From the NCBI GenBank assembly GCA_043745805.1, contig JAYTSD010000009.1, positions 1 to 41,984 of the forward strand: a DNA stretch of 41,984 nt. Direction: 5' to 3'. Below are positions 1 to 20,399 of the stretch, one piece after another; within the stretch, counting starts at the first letter, position 1, and every line of letters begins with the position of its first letter. The stretch comes from Fibrobacteria bacterium. GTDB lineage: Bacteria; Fibrobacterota; Fibrobacteria; UBA11236. The notes below the pieces were generated by a model, which ran no database searches, was not told the DNA's origin, and saw only the letters and a list, made by a program, of their open reading frames with translations. The translations under genes and the position numbers were made by a program.

Positions 1-59
1 GATACCACAAACCGTTTGAATTCTTCGGTAAAATTTCGCTGATTGACCAGTTCTTTCAT
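1..59 (-). CDS. 5' end of a hypothetical protein (MKELVNQRNFTEEFKRFVV...), first gene of putative cassette C; runs off the window
   Basis: Minus-strand ATG at 59 with GGAG (68-65) upstream. An in-frame alternative ATG lies at 83. It starts just after the minus-strand core GTTGTCC (96-90). Confidence 0.55.
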   Translation of the reverse strand, partial: MKELVNQRNFTEEFKRFVV

Positions 60-89
60 TATGTCTCCGAATTTTGTAAACATAATTCC

Positions 90-338
90 GGACAACACCG
101 TTGGCCCGATTTGCGAGGACGAGAACAAAGTGGGGCGCAAGCCCCCGGAGTGAATGTCCGCAGCAAGCAATGAAGATGGGGTGAGGCAAACTGACGTAGA
201 CCACAGGAGAAGACTTCAGAGAAAGTCAGTGCAGCCCGAACCCCAATCTGAATTGCCGGGCCAGCCCCAAAACCAATTTGGGCGAAGCCCCGGAGCGCGG
301 GTGGAAACCCGCGTGGAGCACCCTGGGCTGTGTTATAC
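90..338 (-). mobile_element. Long structured attC-like recombination site 1 (249 bp)
   Basis: Bounded by GGACAAC (90-96) and GTTATAC (332-338). Nested stems: TGGCCCG/CGGGCCA, ATGGGG/CCCC(A)AT, ACTGAC/GTCAGT, GGGC-GCAA-GCCC, GCGGGT-GGAA-ACCCGC. Shares GCAATGAAG, GACGTAGACC and CTGAATTGCCG with the site at 3676-3935. Confidence 0.75.
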
Positions 339-372
339 GCTGGTTTACCTCCCAGTTTTCTTGGGGGGTGGG
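332..372. repeat. Left terminal inverted-repeat arms of cassette B
   Basis: 332-351 GTTATACGCTGGTTTACCTC is the reverse complement of 3663-3682 at 18/20. 361-372 TTGGGGGGTGGG is the perfect reverse complement of 3594-3605. Confidence 0.9.
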
Positions 373-585
373 CTTGTCTTCTCTTCGCGCACCGGTTTTT
401 CCTGTTTTTGCATTACGGGGTTGGGTCCCCACTCTTACGAAATTGAAGTAATTACTTTCTTAAGGCATGGCGAAGGGCCGTAAGCATTTTGCCATGCGCA
501 CGTTTGTACCGCTTTTCTTTTCTTGTTGGCATAAGCAAAGAATGGTTATTTTTCTATAATTTAGGCCTTTTGAAGGCCATGGTAA

Positions 586-1695
586 ATGTTTCTTGATAAG
601 AACTGGTTGTCCAAGAAAACCAAACCCCAGGAAAAACAGGCTGGGAAAATAATTGGTATTGCAGATATTTTTTCTGGTTGCGGTGGGATGTCGCTTGGAG
701 CGATAGAGGCGTCAATGCTTCACAATCTTCGACCAAAGATTAAATTAGCCGTGGAAACAAACACCTACGCAAGTACGGTTTATAAAAACAACTTTTCTGA
801 TAAAATAAAAGCCTTATTAAATTCTAAAATTGAAACGATTATCGATTCCGATCCAGGCGAGCCGATTTCCAAAAAAGAAAAGCTCCTTAAAGCGAAAATC
901 GGAAAAATCCACATACTTCTTGCTGGCCCTCCTTGTCAGGGGCATTCACGTTTAAATAATTATACAAGATCTAATGACCCGCGAAACTCTTTGTATCTAA
1001 AAGCTGTGCGAATGGCAGAGATATTTAAGCCTGGTCTTGTAGTTATCGAAAATGTCGTTAATATTATTAAAGATAAAGATCGAGTAATTAACCAAAGTTC
1101 TTTGGCGCTTGAAAAAATTGGATACGAAGTAGAAAACTTAACTGTGCACCTTTCTAATTACGGAGTTGCCCAAAATCGAAAACGGCATATTCAAATTGCT
1201 ACTCTTAAAAGATTCAAAATTGACTTCTCTAACTATAAAGTAAAGTATGTTCTTTCTGATGTGATTTCGGATATTTTGGACGAATCTGTTCTTAAGGAGG
1301 GATTGTTTTTCTCTCCATCAAAAACCAAGCACCAAAACCGCATTGATTTTCTTTTCGAAAAAAATCTTTATGATTTACCAAACAGATTAAGACCCGATTG
1401 TCACAAAGATAAACATACCTACCCATCATGCTATGGCCGGTTAAATTGGAATAAACCATCTTCTACAATAACAAGAGGGTTTAGCACCATGGGACAAGGC
1501 AGGTTTTTACATCCCCTACGAAGAAGAACCTTAACTCCACATGAAGCGTGTAGAATTCAAGGCATACCAGATTATTTTGATTTTTCTAGTGTAGAAAAAA
1601 GAGGAGAGCTGCATCTGATGATCGCAAATGCGGTTCCACCAAGAATTATTGCCTGCATCATTGACCAATACATCAAAAATATTTTCAATAAATAA
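586..1695 (+). CDS. dcm: DNA (cytosine-5)-methyltransferase
   Basis: C5-MTase motifs in order: DIFSGCGG (I), GPPCQGHS (IV, catalytic PC), ENV (VI), QNRKR (VIII), RTLTPHEACRIQG (IX), IANAVPP (X). Confidence 0.95.
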   Translation: MFLDKNWLSKKTKPQEKQAGKIIGIADIFSGCGGMSLGAIEASMLHNLRPKIKLAVETNTYASTVYKNNFSDKIKALLNSKIETIIDSDPGEPISKKEKLLKAKIGKIHILLAGPPCQGHSRLNNYTRSNDPRNSLYLKAVRMAEIFKPGLVVIENVVNIIKDKDRVINQSSLALEKIGYEVENLTVHLSNYGVAQNRKRHIQIATLKRFKIDFSNYKVKYVLSDVISDILDESVLKEGLFFSPSKTKHQNRIDFLFEKNLYDLPNRLRPDCHKDKHTYPSCYGRLNWNKPSSTITRGFSTMGQGRFLHPLRRRTLTPHEACRIQGIPDYFDFSSVEKRGELHLMIANAVPPRIIACIIDQYIKNIFNK

Positions 1696-1705
1696 AGAGG
1701 TATAA

Positions 1706-2770
1706 ATGGCATCTGGAAAAAATATTTCCGCCGTCAGAAAAAAAGCCGCCGAAAAGCAGATCGTTGATAACATCAAGGTGTTTGACTACGATACTATTGA
1801 GTATCCGATCGAAGTAATTGTTGAAAAATATTCGACAGATTTAGAAGAAGAAGAGAATGACATTTATATCCCTGATTATCAAAGAGAATTTATTTGGAGC
1901 GAAAAACGCCGCTCCAAGTTTATCGAATCAATTTTGCTTGGCGTCCCCATTCCATATATATTTTTGGCCGACGTGGAAGGCCGCAAAGAAGTTGTCGACG
2001 GCTCACAACGAATTCGCACCTTAGATGTTTTTGTTAAGGACCAACACACAATTGAAAATTTAGATCGACTAACTGAGTTAAATGGATTCAAGTTTTCAGA
2101 CTTCGACCCTGTCAGGCAAAAAAGATTTCTTAATAAGAGCTTGAAAATGATTTTCTTATCGGAAAAAACAGATAGCATCGCTCGGCAAGATTTATTTGAA
2201 AGGATAAACACTGGTAGCGACGAGCTAAAACCGATGGAAGTCTTGAAAGGTAGTCAGGGAGGTAAATTTTACAGCTATCTTGAAGAGTGTAGTAAAAAGC
2301 CTTTGTTCAAAAAACTTTGTCCTATTAGCGACAAAACAAGTATTAGAGAAGAAGGTACTGAAAGAGCTTTAAGGTTTTTTGCATATTCAGAATCCTTGGA
2401 AGGCTATTCCGGAGTAGTAAGTGCTTTTATGGAAAAGTATATGAAAAAACGCTCAAGTAATTTTTCCACAACTGAGCGAAACAAGCTTGAGAAAAAATTC
2501 AACGATATGTTGGCCTTTGTAGATAGTCATTTTCCAAATGGTTTTAAGAAAAATAACAAAACTAAGTCAACTCCTAGGGTTCGTTTTGAGGCTATTTCAA
2601 TTGGTGTTTCCAAGGCATTGGAAAAAAAACCAAATTTGACTGTAACAAATGTTGATTGGCTTGAATCGGAGGAGTTTAAACATCACACTCGCTCAGATGC
2701 AGCTAATAATAAATCTAAACTTGAAGGACGAATTAATTTCGTAATGAACAAACTTTTGGGAAAAGTTTGA
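1706..2770 (+). CDS. DUF262 (GmrS/ParB-like) domain protein
   Basis: IPDYQREFIW, FIESILLGVPIP, VVDGSQR and FERIN motifs typical of DUF262. RBS AGAGG upstream. Confidence 0.9.
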   Translation: MASGKNISAVRKKAAEKQIVDNIKVFDYDTIEYPIEVIVEKYSTDLEEEENDIYIPDYQREFIWSEKRRSKFIESILLGVPIPYIFLADVEGRKEVVDGSQRIRTLDVFVKDQHTIENLDRLTELNGFKFSDFDPVRQKRFLNKSLKMIFLSEKTDSIARQDLFERINTGSDELKPMEVLKGSQGGKFYSYLEECSKKPLFKKLCPISDKTSIREEGTERALRFFAYSESLEGYSGVVSAFMEKYMKKRSSNFSTTERNKLEKKFNDMLAFVDSHFPNGFKKNNKTKSTPRVRFEAISIGVSKALEKKPNLTVTNVDWLESEEFKHHTRSDAANNKSKLEGRINFVMNKLLGKV

Positions 2771-3489
2771 TGAAATCAGTAATAGACGATTTTAATTTGA
2801 GAGCTAAGGAAATTGATATTTATTTTCAGTTCCTAAAAGATGTTGTTGACAAAGATTCGAAACTCAGAATATCGGACGGAAAAAAATGGCGCAAACAAAA
2901 ATTTCCGGACTCGGTTCAAAAAATTCTTAAGGCGAATTTATTTTTGCTCCTTTATAATTTGATTGAATCTTCTTTTACAAAATCTTTGGAGCATATTTGT
3001 AAAACTATCAATGATCACAATCTGATTTACCCTAAAACAATTCCCGAAATAAAAAAAATTTGGGTTAAAAAACAAGCGAAATATTTTGATCCGCCCAACA
3101 AGGGAGCTTCCCTCAGGAAAGAAGACCACTTTTTGGAGATGATTGATTCGATTTCAACTCAGGTTATTTCCATTCCATCTAGTCTGGATGATTCTGGTTA
3201 TGCTGGAAATATTGATGCAAAGAAAATACGTGAAATCGGAATGCTATATGGACTTTTCGTGACCAAGGAAGTGTTTCCTGTAAAAGGAAAGGAGCTTTTG
3301 TTGGTTAAAAACCGAAGAAATGCTTTAGCTCACGGAAATCAATCTTTTTCAGAATGCGGCAGAGACTATTCCATTAATCGTCTGGAAGAAATAAAAATTG
3401 ATTCGATTTCATATATGAAATTTATCCTAAACTCGTTTAAATTAAAGGTAAACAAGAAATATTTTCAGTCAAAAAGAGTTAAAAAGTGA
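2767..3489 (+). CDS. HEPN-domain protein (MAE_28990/MAE_18760-like), putative RNase effector
   Basis: LLLYNLIES N-terminal helix, GNID, and RNALAH (Rx4H) HEPN motif. Start overlaps the DUF262 stop. Confidence 0.85.
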   Translation: MMKSVIDDFNLRAKEIDIYFQFLKDVVDKDSKLRISDGKKWRKQKFPDSVQKILKANLFLLLYNLIESSFTKSLEHICKTINDHNLIYPKTIPEIKKIWVKKQAKYFDPPNKGASLRKEDHFLEMIDSISTQVISIPSSLDDSGYAGNIDAKKIREIGMLYGLFVTKEVFPVKGKELLLVKNRRNALAHGNQSFSECGRDYSINRLEEIKIDSISYMKFILNSFKLKVNKKYFQSKRVKK

Positions 3490-3593
3490 GATGAAAACCA
3501 ATTGGATTTCGAAAATGAATTACTTCATATGAATTCGAATTGATTCTTTCCGGTGAGCGTTTTTTCTTTCTTTTGGAATTCGCAATTCTCTTC

Positions 3594-3682
3594 CCCACCC
3601 CCCAACAAAATTCAGCTTTATAAAATTGTCGGGCAAACTGATAAGTTTGACCGGCAACATTTGAGGTAAACTTGCGTATAAC
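3594..3682. repeat. Right terminal inverted-repeat arms of cassette B with intervening hairpin
   Basis: CCCACCCCCCAA (3594-3605), hairpin TTGTCGGGCAAACT-GATA-AGTTTGACCGGCAA (3626-3657), CAACATTT (3655-3662), GAGGTAAACTTGCGTATAAC (3663-3682). Confidence 0.85.
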
Positions 3683-3935
3683 GTTCGCGCCAGTAGGAAG
3701 TGGGCTGCAAGGCCATTCTCGAAAGGTGAGGATGCGAATGAAGTGGTGCGCTATCGCACCCGAAATGAGCACCCGCAGCCTGCAATGAAGCTAACCTGAG
3801 AGCAAGCGGACGTAGACCTTTGTGAAGTTCGCGCCGCTCGAAGGTTAAGCTGAATTGCCGAGAAGGCCTTGCAGCCCATTTGCGAACCCGCAATGCGAAG
3901 CATGCCCGTGGGTTCCCTACTGGCGCTTGTTGCAC
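3676..3935 (-). mobile_element. Long structured attC-like recombination site 2 (260 bp)
   Basis: Bounded by GTATAAC (3676-3682) and GTTGCAC (3929-3935). Perfect stems GCGCCAGTAGG/CCTACTGGCGC (3687-3697/3916-3926) and TGGGCTGCAAGGCC/GGCCTTGCAGCCCA (3701-3714/3865-3878). Inner branched core is homologous to site 1. Confidence 0.85.
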
Positions 3936-3968
3936 GATCGTTTCGCATTTGCATTTATTTTAGGGGGG
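3929..3968. repeat. Left terminal inverted-repeat arms of cassette A
   Basis: GTTGCAC (3929-3935) vs GTGCAAC (5114-5120). TTTCGCATTT (3941-3950) vs AAATGCGAAA (5100-5109). ATTTATTTTAGGGGGG (3953-3968) vs CCCCCCTAAAATAAAT (5035-5050). All are perfect reverse complements. Confidence 0.9.
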
Positions 3969-3977
3969 TCTTCGAAT

Positions 3978-4976
3978 TTAATTGAAATCACCGGCAATTT
4001 CGACCTCGATGCGAGATAAGCTTCCTCTGATTCTCGGGCAAGGAAGGGACATTAAAATAGAGTCGATCATTAAGAATTTTTCTTTCGCGCCCGCAAACCT
4101 GACACAGTTCATTTTTTCCGAAAATAGTTTTAGTTTATTTGTTGGGAAAATGGAAAGCAAATTATTGGCGGTAAGAATTTCTATACCTTTTCCAAACTTT
4201 ATTTTTTGTGTGTTTCCAAATAAAATGATTTTTTCTTTCTCGGTTTTCAAGTATTGGATCATTGATTCATTCCGGATTAAATGGTACGAATCGGGATCAA
4301 CTGGAGATTTTCTACTCCAGTGCCCATCATTGTTATCACGGATATCCATCTGTTTCTCGCAGAGATTTAGTGCGTCATTTTCCCCCCAAGTTATAACCTC
4401 CATGTTTTTTAAGGAATAACCTTTTTCGTTGTCAATACGGTTTACACTGGGGATTTCCTTTTCTTGTCTTCCATTTTTATCCCACTCCGCAAATAAAATT
4501 TCAAATGGCGTACTTTTTATAATCCATTCAAAAAATGTTTCGAAAGAGAGTTTCGGAAGATCGTGTCCTCTTCTTTTGCTTCGCTCAATTATTTTTTGAA
4601 ACATTTTTTTGGCTTGAATTTGGAGTGGCTTCTCTCCGATTTTAGCAGCGTTTGCCTTGTTTTTTCGCTGTAGGGTCTTTTTCCGAATTGGGAGTGATTC
4701 AACGATAACCTTGATAATGCTTTCTTTTTCAAAGAAGTATGTAGGATCACGTGGGTCAAATTTGGTTTTAGTGATTTTGCAATATGCTGAACCCAGTGTT
4801 TCTACGTTTATCACTCTTAAAAATTTAACGAAATTGACCTCATCGTTGAAGTAGTCCATGTAATCGGATTTCGATTTTAAGAGGAGCGTGGAATTCTGTA
4901 TGCATCTTCCGTAGGTGATTTTTAACTCATCATTTTTCAGATCCTTGAATAATTGGTAGCATGAATATTGATTCAT
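3978..4976 (-). CDS. Hypothetical protein with central HNH-like (beta-beta-alpha) segment; cassette A gene
   Basis: PSVNRIDNEKGYSLKNMEVITWGEN resembles the SxDRID..GY...N....T..EN motif of phage HNH-type proteins. Start placed at MNQYSC (ATG 4976, AAGGA upstream) rather than the track's TTG at 5027. Confidence 0.6.
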   Translation of the reverse strand: MNQYSCYQLFKDLKNDELKITYGRCIQNSTLLLKSKSDYMDYFNDEVNFVKFLRVINVETLGSAYCKITKTKFDPRDPTYFFEKESIIKVIVESLPIRKKTLQRKNKANAAKIGEKPLQIQAKKMFQKIIERSKRRGHDLPKLSFETFFEWIIKSTPFEILFAEWDKNGRQEKEIPSVNRIDNEKGYSLKNMEVITWGENDALNLCEKQMDIRDNNDGHWSRKSPVDPDSYHLIRNESMIQYLKTEKEKIILFGNTQKIKFGKGIEILTANNLLSIFPTNKLKLFSEKMNCVRFAGAKEKFLMIDSILMSLPCPRIRGSLSRIEVEIAGDFN

Positions 4977-5034
4977 ATTCTTTTCCTTGCTTGAATTTTG
5001 TTTTAAAGTAGAAAAGGTAAGAATCAACTTTCTT

Positions 5035-5120
5035 CCCCCCTAAAATAAATCCAAACTCAACCTTGGCTTTTCGGCTGAAAGTCGGAAAGCCAACATTTTA
5101 AATGCGAAATGTTGTGCAAC
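5035..5120. repeat. Right terminal inverted-repeat arms of cassette A with intervening hairpin
   Basis: CCCCCCTAAAATAAAT (5035-5050), hairpin TTGGCTTTTCGGC-TGAAA-GTCGGAAAGCCAA (5063-5093), CAACATTT (5091-5098), AAATGCGAAA (5100-5109), GTGCAAC (5114-5120). Confidence 0.85.
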
Positions 5121-5132
5121 TCCTGCTTACGC
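5114..5132 (-). mobile_element. attI-like primary recombination site
   Basis: Minus strand reads GCGTAAG-CAGGA-GTTGCAC, a 7-5-7 layout like attI1 CCCTAAA-ACAAA-GTTRRRY. It lies immediately upstream of the divergent recombinase, and no long hairpin follows on the integrase side. Confidence 0.6.
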
Positions 5133-5140
5133 GCACCATA

Positions 5141-5169
5141 TTTACCAATAACATAAAAACAAGTATCTT
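5141..5169 (+). promoter_or_regulatory. Putative sigma70 promoter of the integrase (possibly leaderless mRNA)
   Basis: TTTACC (5141-5146), 17 nt spacer, TATCTT (5164-5169), then 7 nt to ATG 5177. No SD visible. Confidence 0.45.
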
Positions 5170-5176
5170 ACCCGTC

Positions 5177-6022
5177 ATGAAAGAAGACTTAATCCTATCC
5201 CTGACCCGCGAATTAAAGCGCCGAAATTACAGCCCACAAACCATAAAATCATATACTTCCGCTTTAAAGGACTATCAATCCTTTTACTTAGGCAATCCAT
5301 TAAATTATAGCGAAAAAGCAGTTCGCACTTTTTTGGAAAAACAACTCGAAAAAGGATTAGCGGCTACTACTGTCAACTTGCAAATGAACGCTTTAAAATT
5401 TTTCTATCGGGAAATCGCTCAAAATATCACAGCGATGGATAATATTAAATCGGCCAAGGAAGAGAAATCATTACCCGTCATTCTTTCCCAAAACGAAGTG
5501 CAAAAAATTTTAGAAGTTACCCTTAACCGAAAACATTATTTATTACTTGCTATTGCCTACGGAGCGGGTTTACGCGTTTCCGAAGTGGTAGCGTTAAAAG
5601 TGGGAGACATTGATTTTGAACGGAACTTAATAACGGTACGTCAAGGCAAAGGGATGAAGGATAGACAAACCTTATTGCCGTCTAATATTGTACCTGAGCT
5701 CACTCGGTTTTCACTAGGACGTAACACGCAAGAACCTTTATTCGAAAGTGAGCGCGGCGGGGCATTAAGTTTAAGGACTGCGCAAAAGGTTTTTGAGCAG
5801 GCTTGTGATAAAGCCAAAATCAAAAAACAAGCGAGCTTTCATACATTGCGTCACAGCTTTGCTACCCACCTTTTAGAGCAGGGAATCGACACCCGTTATG
5901 TGCAAGAATTATTAGGCCATGAAAACATCCGCACCACGCAATTGTACTTACATGTTACTAAGCATCACCTAAGCAAAATCGCTAGCCCTTTGAATTTTAT
6001 CGGATCAAAAAGCTTTGGCTAA
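5177..6022 (+). CDS. Tyrosine recombinase, integron-integrase-like, lacking the IntI-specific insertion
   Basis: N-terminal SAM-like domain (RRNYSPQTIKSY), LPVILS, and catalytic R (GLRVSE), K (GKGMKDR), HTLRH, LGH, Y (TTQLY). Start placed at MKEDL (281 aa). Confidence 0.92.
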   Translation: MKEDLILSLTRELKRRNYSPQTIKSYTSALKDYQSFYLGNPLNYSEKAVRTFLEKQLEKGLAATTVNLQMNALKFFYREIAQNITAMDNIKSAKEEKSLPVILSQNEVQKILEVTLNRKHYLLLAIAYGAGLRVSEVVALKVGDIDFERNLITVRQGKGMKDRQTLLPSNIVPELTRFSLGRNTQEPLFESERGGALSLRTAQKVFEQACDKAKIKKQASFHTLRHSFATHLLEQGIDTRYVQELLGHENIRTTQLYLHVTKHHLSKIASPLNFIGSKSFG

Positions 6023-7236: not shown

Positions 7237-9129
7237 GTGAAAAATGTCTTAACCATAAACAAGACGCTATTTGTTTACACCTTGGCCGCAGCCATAACCA
7301 TGGCCGGCAAAGCCCAGGCGGCTTCCTACTATGTTAATTCGACGGGCGGCAACGATTCCAATGCAGGAACCAGCAGCGCTGCCTCTTGGATGAGTATCAC
7401 TAAGCTCAACAATGTTACCTTCAAGGCAGGTGACAAAATCCTGTTGAAGTCCGGTTCTGCTTGGACCATGGCTTCCGGCACGGAAGTGCATCCTTTGGGT
7501 TCCGGTGCCTCGGGTAACCCAATTGTGATTGATATGTATGAAGGAACTGTCAAGCCCATCATTAACGGCAACGGAGCGGTGACTTCTAATGCTTTCCACC
7601 TTGCCAACCAGCAGTACTGGGAAATCAACAATCTCGAGATCACTAACAAGGGTAACATTTCGGATAACAATGGATCCGATGCAAATCACAAAATCGGTGT
7701 CTATATTGAAGCATCTTCTGGTATTATCAACCACGTTTATTTAAAGAACCTGAACGTCCACGATGTTTACGGTGCACTGGGTAAGGACGCGGGTGGTAAG
7801 TTCGACGGCGGCATTATCATGGAGAGCACAAGCTCATCTAGTCACTTTAATGACATTCTCATCGATGGTTGCACGGTCATGAATGCGGACCGCCAGGGTA
7901 TCACCGTGGGGGACATCGCGGGCAACACTGGTAGGAGCCTCACGGGCATTAATTATTCTACGAATGTGATCATCCAGAATTGCGTGGTGGACCATCCCGG
8001 TGGCGACGGTATCTTAATGTTCACATGCCAGGGTGCAATCGTTCAACACAATCTCGCTATCCACACAAACAACAAAAGCGACTATGCTTGCTCGATGTGG
8101 CCTTGGCAAAGCAATGAAACACACTTTCAGTATAATGAAGGATATGACGCCCAAGGGATAAAGAGTGGTGCGCAAGACGACGGCACCTTCGGGGATGCCG
8201 ACGGGGACAATGGTACCTCATACTACGATTGGAACTACACCCACGACAATGCAGGTGGTGGATACATGATTTGCAACAGCACAGGTGTGGGCACCAGTCC
8301 TCCCCAGGCCACCTACATCCGCTACAATGTCAGCCACAACGAAATGGCCTATGCCATTTACTTCAGTTCGGCCAAAGCCGCCACCAACATCTTTATCTAC
8401 AACAACACCTTCTACCAGCCCAGTGGCTGTAAGGGCGCCATCTTTCACTCTGATGATGGCGGCGGCACTTTCACCGCCAAGAACAATATCTTCGTGAACC
8501 TAGGTTCGGGCAATGGTTTCGACAATCTTGTTTCCGGCACTCGCAACTTGGACTATAACGTTTTCTATGGCAGTAACTTCAGCGTAACGGAAACCGACAA
8601 AGACATTCATAAGTTGATGACGGATCCCAAACTCAATGGCGCAAGCACAGCTACGATCAACACTCGCTACACCGATGTGATCAACAATCATCTATTCCAG
8701 TTGCAAGCGGGTTCTCCAGCCATCGCTTCCGGCGTTGTGATCAGTAGTGGAAATCTCAGCAAGGATTTTTGGGGTAACACTATCTCCACCACAGCTCCTA
8801 GCCGCGGCGCGCATGAACATAGCGCAACTACTCGCGTGATTCCGCACAATGCCTTAGTCGAAACGGATCGCGATTTCACTTTTGATGCCTCCGTGAGTAG
8901 AGCCTTGATCACCGTTACATATTCTCAGAAAAAATCGGGCTATGTTTCATTTTGGCTGGTGAATTCGGAAGGCAAGAAAATTGCGACATTGGCCAACGGT
9001 TATTTGGGTGCTGGGGTCGTGATGCAGAAGAGTGTGTCTACTTCCGCTTTAACATCCGGACCTTACTTCATTCAAGGTAACGTTCAAGGAACGCCTTTGC
9101 GAAAACAAATCTCACTCGTCAACTTATAA
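7237..9129 (+). CDS. Secreted right-handed parallel beta-helix protein (pectin-lyase-like fold) with T9SS-like C-terminal domain
   Basis: Signal peptide (AQA), YYVNSTGGNDSNAGTS..W N-terminal motif, Asn/Gly-rich helix repeats, LQAGSPAI..G..DFWGN, C-terminal NSEGKKIATL...SGPYFI. GGAGG RBS before GTG. Confidence 0.8.
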   Translation: MKNVLTINKTLFVYTLAAAITMAGKAQAASYYVNSTGGNDSNAGTSSAASWMSITKLNNVTFKAGDKILLKSGSAWTMASGTEVHPLGSGASGNPIVIDMYEGTVKPIINGNGAVTSNAFHLANQQYWEINNLEITNKGNISDNNGSDANHKIGVYIEASSGIINHVYLKNLNVHDVYGALGKDAGGKFDGGIIMESTSSSSHFNDILIDGCTVMNADRQGITVGDIAGNTGRSLTGINYSTNVIIQNCVVDHPGGDGILMFTCQGAIVQHNLAIHTNNKSDYACSMWPWQSNETHFQYNEGYDAQGIKSGAQDDGTFGDADGDNGTSYYDWNYTHDNAGGGYMICNSTGVGTSPPQATYIRYNVSHNEMAYAIYFSSAKAATNIFIYNNTFYQPSGCKGAIFHSDDGGGTFTAKNNIFVNLGSGNGFDNLVSGTRNLDYNVFYGSNFSVTETDKDIHKLMTDPKLNGASTATINTRYTDVINNHLFQLQAGSPAIASGVVISSGNLSKDFWGNTISTTAPSRGAHEHSATTRVIPHNALVETDRDFTFDASVSRALITVTYSQKKSGYVSFWLVNSEGKKIATLANGYLGAGVVMQKSVSTSALTSGPYFIQGNVQGTPLRKQISLVNL

Positions 9130-9159
9130 AGAGGACTCCCGCCATCCGCGGGGTCTTTT
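9128..9159 (+). terminator. Possible intrinsic terminator or attenuator hairpin
   Basis: GACTCCCGC-CATCC-GCGGGGTC followed by a short T run. Confidence 0.4.
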
Positions 9160-9166
9160 GATAACC

Positions 9167-10213
9167 ATGCGAAAAAATCTCTGTATCTTCTGGCTTGCCG
9201 CGGTCTGCGCCACTGAAATGATTTTATTTTCCCCGCTATTATCGCGGGCATATGATATTCAGACCGCGGCTGTCGCATTTGTTAATGAAGAGCCTATTGC
9301 AGTGGGTTTCTTTGCTTTCAAACTCGGCCAGAATCGTTCGGACATATTCAATTACTTTGCAAATAAATACCAAGCCCAAGCCGATTCAGCGTTCTGGAGG
9401 AAATCATTCCATGGCGAAGTCCCGCTCGTCATGTTGAAGAAACAAACGATCGAAGAATGTGCTAAAATCAAAATTCAAGAAATCCTCGCAAAGCGCTATG
9501 GAGTTATTCAAGATATTTCTTGGGATGCTTTTATAAAAGAATTCACTTTGGAAAATCTGCGACGGCAAAATGCCGTAAAAAAACATAGGGTTATTTACGG
9601 TCCCTTGCAATACAACACCGCGACTTATTTCTCCTATCGTTTTGATAATTTGGTGAGAAAGCTGAAAGAGGCCCTTTTAAAAAAGGAATTACATGTTTCT
9701 GGCGAGGAACTCCGAGCCTATTTCGAAACACTCCGCGAGGGTTATTCGCATTCCAGCAAGGCAACCATTCATCGGATTTTTATTCCTTACCGCCGACCCA
9801 ATGCCAGGGCAATGATTGACGTGATCTACGAACGATTGACTAAACATATGGATGATTTCGATTCCCTGGCAACTGCGTGGAACGCTAAGCGGGATATTCT
9901 TGAGCAGAGGTTTAGTGGCAGAAATTATGCGTATTGCGAAAAAAAATCGCCGGAATTAGTCGCGCAGATTAGAAAAACTGATCAAGGTCGCGTGAGCGAT
10001 GTTTTCGAATCGGACGGTGGGTTCAATATTATCAAGTGCATGGAGAAAGGTTGCAAGCCGGATTTCGAGCGCATTCAAGGTCTGCTTAAGCTGCAAATGC
10101 TCGATAAAAAATATGCCCGCTATATTGATTCGCTTATAATCAAAGCAACCCTCACGATTAATCATTCTGTTTACGATACCATTTTTGCTGAAGGTGAAGC
10201 CCCTTCTTTTTAA
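9167..10213 (+). CDS. SurA/PrsA-like parvulin-type foldase (peptidyl-prolyl isomerase family)
   Basis: Signal peptide, VAFVNEEPI, VIYGP, HRIFI, GRVSDVFESDGGFNIIK. The parvulin domain looks divergent. Confidence 0.7.
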   Translation: MRKNLCIFWLAAVCATEMILFSPLLSRAYDIQTAAVAFVNEEPIAVGFFAFKLGQNRSDIFNYFANKYQAQADSAFWRKSFHGEVPLVMLKKQTIEECAKIKIQEILAKRYGVIQDISWDAFIKEFTLENLRRQNAVKKHRVIYGPLQYNTATYFSYRFDNLVRKLKEALLKKELHVSGEELRAYFETLREGYSHSSKATIHRIFIPYRRPNARAMIDVIYERLTKHMDDFDSLATAWNAKRDILEQRFSGRNYAYCEKKSPELVAQIRKTDQGRVSDVFESDGGFNIIKCMEKGCKPDFERIQGLLKLQMLDKKYARYIDSLIIKATLTINHSVYDTIFAEGEAPSF

Positions 10214-12854: not shown

Positions 12855-13945
12855 TAAAGCTTAACCTGTCCATTGTGAACGGTGATAATTTGTTGTACGT
12901 CAAAAGGCAAGTCGGCGATGCGAGGATTGGCAATAAAAACCTGAGCTTTACTCTGCACGATTTGACCTATTTTCAATCTTCTGTTTTCATCTAACTCGGA
13001 AAAAACATCGTCCAAAAGTAAGATGGGCGGTTTGCCGATTTTCTGTTCGAGCAAGGCCGCGGCGGCTAATTTTAGACTCAATGAAATGGACCTTTTTTGT
13101 CCTTGAGATCCAAAATCCCGCACTAATTTTCCGCTCAGGAAAAATAGTAAATCCTCGCGGTGAGGTCCAATTAAACTATTGCGTTGTTCGAGTTCTACAT
13201 GCCGTAAAGCAGCCATTTTTTGGGCCATATCGGCCTGAATATTTTCGAGGTCCAAAGCGGCCGAAACTTCGGTGGAGATTTCCATTTGCAAGCTCTCCGG
13301 CCCACTCACAATTTCATCATTAAATTGAACCGCTAAAGGCGCTAACTGTTCTATGAAAAGCTTGCGTTCATAGGTGATTTTTGATCCCGTTTGCAATAGT
13401 TCTTGGCTATAGGCGGCAAACACTTCGGAATCGAAGCGCGGCATTTGTTTAAGTAGGCTATTACGCTGCTTTAAGGTTTGGTTATAGCGTCGCAAGAGGG
13501 ATAAATATTCCGGTGAATATTGGCAAAGTAAGCTATCTAAAAAACGCCGCCGTAGAGCCGGCGCGCCTTTAAGCAAATCAATGTCTTCAGGTCCAAAAGA
13601 AATGAGGTGAAAATTCCCAATTAAATCGGACAATTTTTTGCTTTCCGTGCCATCTACTTTAACCCGTTTTTCGCCCGTTTCTGAAAACTCCACCGATTGA
13701 ATATGCTCAGTAACGCCTAAGTGACCCTGGGCGCGTAAGGTGAATTTTTTTTCACTCCAGCGAATGAGGTCTTTATCTTTACGCGTGCGCTGTGAATGCG
13801 CCAAACACACATAATGCAAGGCTTCTAATAAATTGGTTTTGCCATGCCCATTGGGGCCAGAAATGAGATTGACCCCAGGCGTGAAATCAACGGCTTGCTC
13901 TGCATAATTGCGAAAATGATGGAGGGTTATTTTATCGAGGATCAA
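12854..13945 (-). CDS. recF: DNA replication/repair protein RecF
   Basis: FRNY, GPNGHGKTNLLEA, GPHREDL, GSQGQKR, LLLDDVFSELD. Likely TTG start at 13945. Confidence 0.96.

Positions 13946-18419: not shown

Positions 18420-20399
<1,980 letters not shown>

Follow-up and report, generated by a model that had tools for sequence, protein, structure and literature searches.

What kind of system is formed by a short tyrosine recombinase, a neighbouring core motif and a row of genes closed by long folded sequences? This question is raised by the first 6,022 nucleotides of contig JAYTSD010000009.1 (C9; C and G numbers are our own handles for contigs and genomes, L numbers for loci) of a Fibrobacteria bacterium from sediment (assembly GCA_043745805.1, 3.95 Mb in 50 contigs). 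The window, i.e. the whole stretch of DNA analysed here, comprises 41,984 nucleotides and corresponds to the first 42 kb of this contig. Since recF and gyrB are located 4.6-8 kb to the right, we conclude that the locus is chromosomal. An initial annotation, which was based on the sequence alone, had proposed a non-canonical integron-like system for the capture of gene cassettes. Independent comparative tests support this proposal, and we consider it probable, at roughly 70%, that the locus is a chromosomal integron-like gene-cassette platform.

The region 100-6022 comprises a gene for a tyrosine recombinase of 281 amino acids, counted from the start on record (5177-6022, plus strand). It further contains a junction core, 56 nt in front of this gene, and a pair of cassettes, each of which closes with a GC-rich folded site of about 260 nt. 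Read leftwards on the minus strand, the order is recombinase, spacer, G^TTGCAC (the caret denotes the putative crossover point), leader, open reading frame (ORF), site B, G^TTATAC, operon and site A. The junction core G^TTGCAC between the putative insertion point attI and cassette 1 lies at 5114-5120 (minus strand), and the 56 nt up to the recombinase start codon (5121-5176) represent, judged by their position, the attI-side spacer. Cassette 1 (3682-5119, minus strand, read 5119->3682, 1438 bp) starts with TTGCAC, which is followed by a 5' leader and the ORF, and closes with site B as far as its G. The branched site B is complete with 260 nt (3676-3935, minus strand), and carries the R'' box GTGCAAC at 3935->3929 and AACGTT with the R' box GTTATAC at 3685->3676. 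Cassette 2 (100-3681, minus strand, read 3681->100) was delimited by the complementarity of its arms and is truncated at its own site, site A (100-338, minus strand), which was recognised by the R'' box GTATAAC at 338->332 and by covariance-model matches.

The junctions of these two cassettes show a distinct footprint. As initially annotated, the minus strand reads GTTGCAC at 5120->5114, site B begins with GTGCAAC and ends in (AAC)GTTATAC, and site A begins with GTATAAC at 338->332. Indeed, the opening 7-mer of each complete unit is the exact reverse complement of the 7-mer that starts its own downstream site (GTTGCAC and GTGCAAC; GTTATAC and GTATAAC). In both window cassettes the pairing of the arms resumes beyond the 7-mer, where a mismatched spacer of 4-5 nt is followed by another 9-10 complementary nt. 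The arms of cassette 1 read GTTGCAC-AACA-TTTCGCATTT and AAATGCGAAA-CGATC-GTGCAAC, with ATTTATTTTAGGGGGG facing CCCCCCTAAAATAAAT further out, and those of cassette 2 read GTTATAC-GCAA-GTTTACCTC and GAGGTAAAC-CAGC-GTATAAC. Whether the two ends of each site mismatch, as was further claimed, can be assessed for site B alone, because the 3' end of site A is lost.

Sites A and B are homologous, with 75% column identity, and the predicted DNA folds of both are more stable than those of shuffled sequences (site B: -72.8 kcal/mol, z -8.6; site A: z -3.9). For homology searches we used two covariance models of half-sites, namely R1, which covers the 3' half, and R2, which covers the 5' half. Site A matched R2 with 102.1 bits (248-338) and R1 with 77.7 bits (90-178), and site B matched R1 with 108.4 bits and R2 with 57.6 bits. 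The genome itself holds five copies of the site, two in the window and three on contig C4 (250, 250 and 202 nt), and apart from these the R1 scan of the genome yielded one match, at an E-value of 0.2. Site length was 241-293 nt in 43 of 45 sites (full range 192-293 nt). The attC sites of integrons are simple hairpins of about 55-140 nt, and the upper attC length limit of IntegronFinder is about 200 nt; the lengths found here agree with the statement of the initial annotation that site length falls outside the canonical definition.

The fold of the site is conserved by covariation. We aligned 38 complete sites taken from 24 sources, namely the window, contig C4 of the same genome and 22 contig stretches from relatives; for this alignment RNAalifold predicted 61 pairs, of which 50 showed compensatory changes. 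The proportion of paired cells reached 93.8%, compared with 70.4% in shuffled alignments and 35-46% when the 3' partners were slid by 1-3 columns, and cells with changes on both sides numbered 570 compared with 176 in shuffles; none of 500 shuffles reached the observed value of any of five pairing measures. The fold is composed of an outer stem beside the cores, a 5' hairpin, a long stem and two arms, one of which is missing from two short site variants. Sequence conservation is mostly found in loops and unpaired stretches (AACA, CAAATGG, GGCAATTCA, TTCATTGC, GCTGCGGG, CCCCACT, GTCCTCGC, CCACTTC and AACGTT), while the stems covary freely. AAC is invariant in all 38 aligned sites, and the R' end reads GTT in 37 of them and GCT in one. 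Besides these complete sites, a fragment of about 100 nt of the site 5' half is located on contig C29 of the same genome (~930-1040; L019) and followed by GAAGAAATTACGAATTACG, which also occurs near the end of C4 (~276,950-277,060; L018). The sequence common to C29 and C4 could stem from an array in decay or represent a cassette leader that both share.

If these sites close cassettes, they should occur in tandem and beside recombinases. R1 matches (E <= 0.01) were found in 21 of 60 relatives, i.e. in 20 of 31 genomes of one family (f1), in one of six of a second (f2) and in none of 23 from three other families, and they form same-strand tandem runs. On contig C85 of G013, a recombinase is followed directly downstream by at least 10 sites of one strand (46.5-66.8 kb), and shorter runs are present in G013:C59, G009:C18 and G008:C168 (four sites each) and in G027:C32 (five sites). 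In a sample of the class, the site was detected in 19 of 31 f1 genomes, one of six f2 genomes and none of 113 genomes from six other families; in a sample of the phylum, the respective numbers were 6 of 11, one of two and none of 137 from sixteen other families. All three tallies include one unpublished genome (G021), which is used for no other conclusion. From this we conclude that, among the genomes searched, the site type is confined to one order.

Recombinase homologues, counted at E <= 1e-35, were found in 20 of the 60 relatives. Seventeen genomes had both sites and recombinase, four had only sites (one of these by a weak match), three had only the recombinase and 36 had neither. Among the 28 recombinase matches listed, those at seven loci of relatives, and likewise the recombinase on C4 of the same genome, have a site at most 4 kb downstream on the same strand; nine further matches lie within 3 kb of the contig end on the downstream side, too close to it to be assessed. 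The occurrence of further site copies in tandem beside homologous recombinases, best seen on C4 and on C85 of G013, is what the initial annotation had named as a requirement of its proposal. A search with the recombinase over genome contigs revealed 25 loci, the best of them 43% identical, none of which had an R1 match. A metagenome-assembled genome (MAG) of the Cytophagales (L041, JAVJQT010000010.1) encodes a recombinase with 38% identity to that of the window, and downstream of it we identified two folded sites of about 125 nt (13470-13620 and 19670-19810). These read ACACAAC...GTTATGT and ACATAAC...GTTGTGC, and the R' box of the first is the reverse complement of the R'' box of the second. 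As a separate observation, an Alphaproteobacteria MAG carries a perfect tandem duplication of 269 nt (L043:17068-17605).

Next, we examined the junction footprint in these arrays, reading the end boxes from R1 and R2 matches on 28 sources (70 and 53 matches, respectively). In 23 of 33 cassettes the R' box of one site was the exact reverse complement, over 7 nt, of the R'' box of the following site, i.e. of the site of the same cassette. Within one site, R' and R'' corresponded exactly in only 6 of 45 cases, and across all cross-locus pairs in 174 of 3063 (5.7%). Array-wide, a short mismatch past the 7-mer gives way to 8-12 further complementary nt. The integron-type cassette footprint, in which the distal R' box belongs to the next cassette, is thus present. 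The insertion of a small element into local palindromes, which was considered as a different origin of the flank matches, is ruled out by the difference between matches within a site (6/45) and matches one cassette apart (23/33).

The site family also carries the inverse cores of integrons, whose consensus is RYYYAAC for R'' and GTTRRRY for R'. The initial annotation had described the core as lying outside GTTRRRY, which does not apply in general, since canonical GTTGGGC (7), GTTAGGC (6) and GTTGGGT (4) occur among the 64 R' boxes read. The variable core bases are often canonical (GCCCAAC, GCCTAAC, GTTGGGC, GTTAGGC), and the non-canonical cores ATGCAAC, GTATAAC, GTTGCAT and GTTATAC are also common.

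The footprint allows a prediction for attI, as the first site of an array determines the 7-mer that is expected beside the recombinase. In six of eight co-directional loci this 7-mer was present once between the recombinase stop codon and the site, each time accompanied by arm complementarity; one locus had none and one was ambiguous. On C4, the attI junction reads G^TTATGC-AACA-TATTGCGTTT and is found 39 nt downstream of the recombinase stop codon; its flank CACACAAGTGGTA^GTT is common to C4 and contig C53 of G002. In G033:C127, next to a recombinase that is 63% identical to that of the window, a GTTGTAC junction followed by a cassette-type arm is located 57 nt upstream of the ATG; the attI-side spacer itself shows little sequence conservation between the window and G033. 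At one locus (L079, G004:C23) no predicted attI core was found downstream of the recombinase stop codon (~3226), which is directly followed by an ORF instead; the start of this ORF, judged by eye, presumably resembles an IS91-type zinc-binding N-terminus.

Cassette mobility is indicated by two species that have one cassette of 4.7 kb in common (G030:C145 and G006:C76). From CAACGTT onward 4676 of 4679 positions are identical, while the sites upstream of the shared cassette are identical at only 80 of 115 positions. The same cassette is thus found behind two different sites in two species, which places the breakpoint inside the conserved core. Together with the 7-mer and attI tests, this bears out the expectation of the initial annotation that the GTT cores mark the junctions of related genomes as well. 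An all-versus-all comparison of 33 cassettes revealed only this one shared pair, and none involving the cassettes of the window.

The recombinase in the window resembles integron integrases without being one by the usual definition. It scores 220.4 against a cut-off of 220 in NF040815 (recomb_XerA_Arch, "site-specific tyrosine recombinase/integron integrase"), which is borderline, and 215.5 against a cut-off of 265 in TIGR02249 (integron integrase), the latter in two stretches. Both this recombinase and the one on C4 match TIGR02249 only at 2-176/178 and 237/240-314, skipping about 177-239. The nearest solved relative is VchIntIA (2a3v), in which residues 4-205 align with 4-202 and residues 244-318 with 199-273 of the window recombinase, whereas about 38 VchIntIA residues (206-243) have no counterpart. 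XerA from Pyrococcus (4a8e), in contrast, aligns end to end in one piece. The motifs GLRVSE, GKGMKDR, HTLRHSFATHLL and LGH...LYLH align with their counterparts in IntI. We conclude that the protein is IntI-like and lacks the IntI-specific domain (intI_Cterm, I2 region), which agrees with the initial annotation in that the integrase falls outside the canonical definition. It does not belong to XerC or XerD either, as it stays below the curated cut-offs (XerC: 193.3 versus 335; XerD: 186.7 versus 330) and better Xer candidates are encoded on contigs C45 and C46 (302.8 and 289.3, and 229.7 and 279.7). The second recombinase of the genome (C4:268663-269598) is 41% identical to that of the window and of the co-directional type, while the divergent layout was seen only in the window and, judged by junction position, at the G033 orthologue. 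A look-up in the ESM Atlas and in exact clusters returned generic integrase clusters only. In a large protein collection, 7474 of 8000 scored candidates reached E <= 1e-30, and in 14 control genomes no IntI above the cut-off was found.

From these results we propose the following mechanism. A small IntI/XerA-like tyrosine recombinase without the IntI insert would act beside its insertion point attI, at which circular cassettes would be inserted successively. Each cassette would carry one to several genes, often for defence, and end in a branched folded site of 240-290 nt bounded by integron-type inverse cores, NNNNAAC at the start and (A)ACGTTNNNN at the end. The neighbouring recombinase would catalyse the exchange and probably use, as in integrons, a folded single-stranded substrate. 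The cut is predicted to fall within the conserved ACG^TT, for site B at G(3682)^TT. A crossover at this position would assign the last bases of an array site to the following cassette, where they pair with the beginning of its own site. In the excised circle, the site would be longer, since its cassette-specific arms of 9-10 nt and the generic arms CCCCC(T/A)AAAA and TTTT(T/A)GGGGG would close the stem outside the crossover point. The predicted circular junctions fold more stably than the sites in array context, both for cassette 1 of the window (-114.2 versus -96.4 kcal/mol) and for cassette 1 of C4 (-102.2 versus -85.5 kcal/mol). The window would accordingly represent a cassette with an orphan ORF, followed by a reversed Dcm-GmrSD_N-HEPN cassette, the second site of which was cut by an insertion sequence.

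Several observations weigh against a cassette platform run in this way by the window recombinase, and they are best considered together with the explanations that they would favour. The exact 7-mer test was missed by 10 of 33 cassettes. Some of these misses are errors of boundary refinement (a second GTT follows in GTTGTGTTCAAT), and others span more than 4 kb and may conceal undetected sites; some of the misses probably stem from overlooked or decayed sites. The IntI insert that the window recombinase lacks is called essential for integron function in the accessible parts of two studies (PMC8138268; PMC7790495), one of which presents its acquisition as the step enabling single-stranded recombination (PMC7790495). 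Moreover, site interior and R'' box are decoupled, which is not predicted by classical integron logic. The first two sites of C4 (L018:13950-14199 and L018:18312-18561) have interiors that are 97.4% identical, but share none of the four variable R'' bases, and among 13 site pairs with interiors at least 90% identical the R'' 4-mer was common to four, with two or fewer bases in common in nine. The travelling unit is thus made up of the variable R-box bases and the arms rather than the whole site. Possible sources of the decoupling are homogenisation by gene conversion, a two-strand exchange in the R-box stem that swaps hairpin tips, or a templated creation of cassettes. The lack of the insert and the decoupling would suit the same cassette system working on ordinary double-stranded sites of the Xer/dif or phage-att type, in which case the structure would serve as a cruciform, in the binding of accessory proteins or in transcription termination. 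The recombinase is indeed of the size of Xer and XerA, lacking the insert with the I2 region that integron integrases use for folded attC (PMC7790495, as far as the accessible text extends), the conserved AACGTT at the crossover is palindromic, duplex arms flank the crossover on both sides in the circular form, and two-strand exchange within the stem would lead to the observed decoupling. However, the stems covary while the loops are conserved, which argues for selection on pairing that a duplex site does not need, and the R-box bases and arms vary between cassettes yet always pair with their own partner. We therefore regard double-stranded sites as unlikely. More plausible, though still tentative, is integron-type capture without the IntI insert, run by a broad undescribed superfamily of Xer- or "Cand"-type recombinases in bacteria of the Candidate Phyla Radiation (CPR), Bacteroidota and this lineage, in which the site has grown to a branched structure of about 260 nt with the crossover inside a long stem. 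With this geometry a single-strand exchange would excise and insert cassettes, whereas a two-strand exchange would swap hairpin tips between sites, which would explain near-identical interiors with unrelated R'' boxes.

A different group of observations concerns the window itself. Its recombinase is only 40-46% identical to those beside relatives' arrays, and its closest homologues, in the large protein collection, are Patescibacteria proteins of about 270 amino acids (50-57% identical). Among the 60 relatives an orthologue was found only in G033, in which no site was detected (this genome is 77% complete). The recombinase could hence be a bystander, with a C4-type recombinase serving the array in trans and 5177-6022 belonging to another element or role. 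All recombinases directly beside relatives' arrays are in fact of the C4 type and point into the array, and the divergent arrangement is peculiar to the window. This explanation seems improbable to us, as it leaves aside the junction core 56 nt upstream of the window start codon, its equivalent at 57 nt in G033, and the Cytophagales locus, where a related recombinase stands beside ~125-nt sites that obey the same footprint rule. The window array is furthermore short and damaged, with just two cassettes left, an insertion sequence inside site A and a contig end, and public data (contigs only, from four runs of one sediment study that contain the stretch, two of which may be its source) showed no alternative joints, although such contigs are uninformative on excision. 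A platform that was built by site-specific recombination and is no longer active in this genome would account for these features. On the other hand, both recombinase genes are intact with their catalytic motifs aligned, no part of site B or of the three C4 sites is missing, and the 99.9%-identical cassette of two species indicates recent mobility within the lineage, so that we consider a fossil state rather doubtful; the platform, which the initial annotation called a working system, may be active at present. By far the least probable explanation is that the repeats are genes for structured non-coding RNAs or a dispersed element resembling miniature inverted-repeat transposable elements (MITEs) or repetitive extragenic palindromes (REPs), independent of recombinases. 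Large, GC-rich, branched elements with conserved loop motifs and tetraloop-like hairpins would fit such a view, as would the four relatives with sites and no recombinase match. Nevertheless, the whole window contains no Rfam match that reaches the gathering score, and a search of 3600-4000 by E-value gave a single match at chance level (E 8.8). In functional RNAs, G-U pairs are as a rule accepted much more readily than A-C, but wobble cells were near parity (98 G-T and 74 A-C beside 2660 Watson-Crick cells; 79-pair consensus, 39 sites), which fits pairing in DNA, or on both strands, better than RNA. The same-strand tandem arrays beside recombinases and the flanks, which match one cassette apart and mismatch within a site, likewise speak against it. 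A chromosomal integron-like cassette platform is therefore the reading that we prefer.

The left end of the window is occupied by the terminus of a multicopy insertion sequence (1-99, minus strand). The sequence 99->1 recurs at six contig ends, each copy opening with GGTGTTGTCCGG and the preceding DNA being unrelated, from which its nature follows; besides the one in the window, copies end contigs C5, C10, C15, C17 and C48, and the assembly is broken at no fewer than six places. Its first ORF starts from 62 (MKELVNQRNFTEEFK...) and shows a weak HTH_Tnp_1 match (E 0.12 on the 28 amino acids available). The interior of the insertion sequence was looked for in the contigs of the genome and is absent from the assembly. 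It cuts site A at base 99/100, the target being the 3' part of a recombination site, and compared with the complete sites of relatives, site A has lost about 35-40 terminal nt including its R' box; the missing 3' end was not found elsewhere in the assembly. Loose ends at position 99 also occur in the contigs of the public runs, where loose ends reflect copies of the insertion sequence and C4 sites with the 5' half of site A. Consequently, the third core G^TTGTCC (96-90) and the "new ORF", which had been taken for a further cassette boundary, must be withdrawn, as the core lies inside the insertion sequence and the ORF is its first (transposase) gene.

The cargo of the window consists of four genes. 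The ORF of cassette 1 (3978-5027, minus strand, co-oriented with the array) encodes 349 amino acids (a form of 332 amino acids is also on record). The ORF is present as initially annotated, but its label "HNH-like" rests on weak PHROG matches to endonuclease/HNH proteins (E 2e-4 and 3e-4), and neither Pfam, even at E 10, nor NCBIfam gave a match. The three-gene operon after G^TTATAC is also present (586-3489), though on the plus strand and hence opposite to the array direction. It encodes a C5 cytosine DNA methyltransferase (Dcm; 586-1695; PF00145, 8.6e-46; TIGR00675, 125.8 bits versus a cut-off of 100.65), a GmrSD_N (DUF262-type) domain protein (1706-2770; PF03235, 2.1e-25) and a HEPN protein of the MAE_28990 type (2767-3489; PF18737, 9.9e-20).

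Across 33 cassettes of 0.2-11.6 kb, which often contain several genes, 68 ORFs were directed towards their own site and 16 were reversed. We scanned 54 cargo proteins, i.e. 53 ORFs of at least 110 amino acids and the cassette 1 ORF, omitting a duplicate cassette in L080. At E <= 1e-5 they matched only 22 Pfam families, including a XamI restriction enzyme, Dcm, GmrSD_N, HEPN, RES, DUF4145 and a reverse transcriptase with PRTase, to which PADLOC added a type III-A retron, PDC-M49A and PD-Lambda-3. Such defence-rich cargo resembles that reported for chromosomal integrons, according to the accessible part of that report (10.1101/2024.07.02.601686).

Some further features were noted in and around the array. 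The 5' leader of cassette 1 (90 nt) contains a 14-bp terminator-like hairpin (5063-5093, plus strand). The recombinase-proximal cassettes of both arrays open with such a strong hairpin (on C4 at ~269,660-269,690), which in both cases separates the junction core from the generic TTTTAGGGGG arm. A promoter scan of the attI region revealed no sigma-70-like promoter, a result that is uninformative because the promoter type of the host is not known. Outside the array, positions 7237-10213 of the window encode a secreted beta-helix protein that is weakly LnbX-like (lacto-N-biosidase) and adjoins an LnbY chaperone-like gene.

Since the IntI insert and short attC hairpins serve both to define integrons and to search for them, the present system would probably escape the standard definitions and tools. 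The locus and its relatives show the full comparative signature of integron-style capture without the insert, and their sites are roughly double the usual maximum in length. Should the system be active, it would allow a direct test of whether the I2 region is required, surveys would be undercounting capture platforms (here with genes for restriction-modification, retrons, HEPN proteins and toxins), and the site would be a new structure-specific recombination site for engineering.

Our literature searches returned no account of either this site or an integron-like system built on sites of this kind. The nearest published analogue found are the rAID-1 clusters of Bacteroidales (Ross et al. 2019; 10.1101/471110), which we compared by description only, based on the accessible parts of that report. 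These clusters have a 5' recombinase and at least two co-directional genes downstream, as on C4 and in the relatives, whereas the window differs by its divergent layout. The recombinase criterion given for rAID-1 is an identity of more than 44% to BF9343_RS08045 (10.1101/471110). In contrast to the cargo found here, rAID-1 clusters carry interbacterial-immunity genes, and in the available text their repeats are described by motif enrichment, without structure, crossover point or cassette footprint (10.1101/471110). The recombinase of the window is also similar to the "Cand" subgroup of Xer-related recombinases and to NF040815, as judged by its 220.4-bit score, the alignment with XerA (4a8e) and its Patescibacteria homologues. 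The accessible part of Smyshlyaev et al. (PMC8138268) treats the "Cand" subgroup as Xer substitutes for chromosome dimer resolution; this genome, however, has two better Xer candidates, and the window protein is located at a cassette junction.

The closest functional parallel is provided by classical and sedentary chromosomal integrons. As in these, a recombinase beside attI is followed by same-strand cassette arrays, the inverse cores ...AAC and GTT... are often the canonical GCCCAAC and GTTGGGC, a G^TT-type footprint joins the end of a site to the next cassette, and the structure of the site is kept by covariation. Cargo ORFs are mostly directed towards the site and rich in defence functions, and arrays also occur without a nearby recombinase, like the clusters of attC sites lacking integron integrases (CALIN). 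The spacing in the window is likewise that of an integron, as sites A and B, both on the minus strand, are 3.3 kb apart and the recombinase is located 1.2 kb from site B, in accordance with the 4-kb rule as given in the accessible text of PMC4889954. The differences are that the recombinase has no IntI-specific insert, that the sites are 241-293 nt long (43/45) and contain several helices and conserved loop motifs, that the complementary arms extend past the crossover, that many cassettes are multi-gene, that the recombinase points into the array in most loci and that the site interior is decoupled from the R'' box. From this comparison we conclude that the system works like an integron, yet it is not to be filed as one, because its recombinase lacks the domain by which integron integrases are defined.

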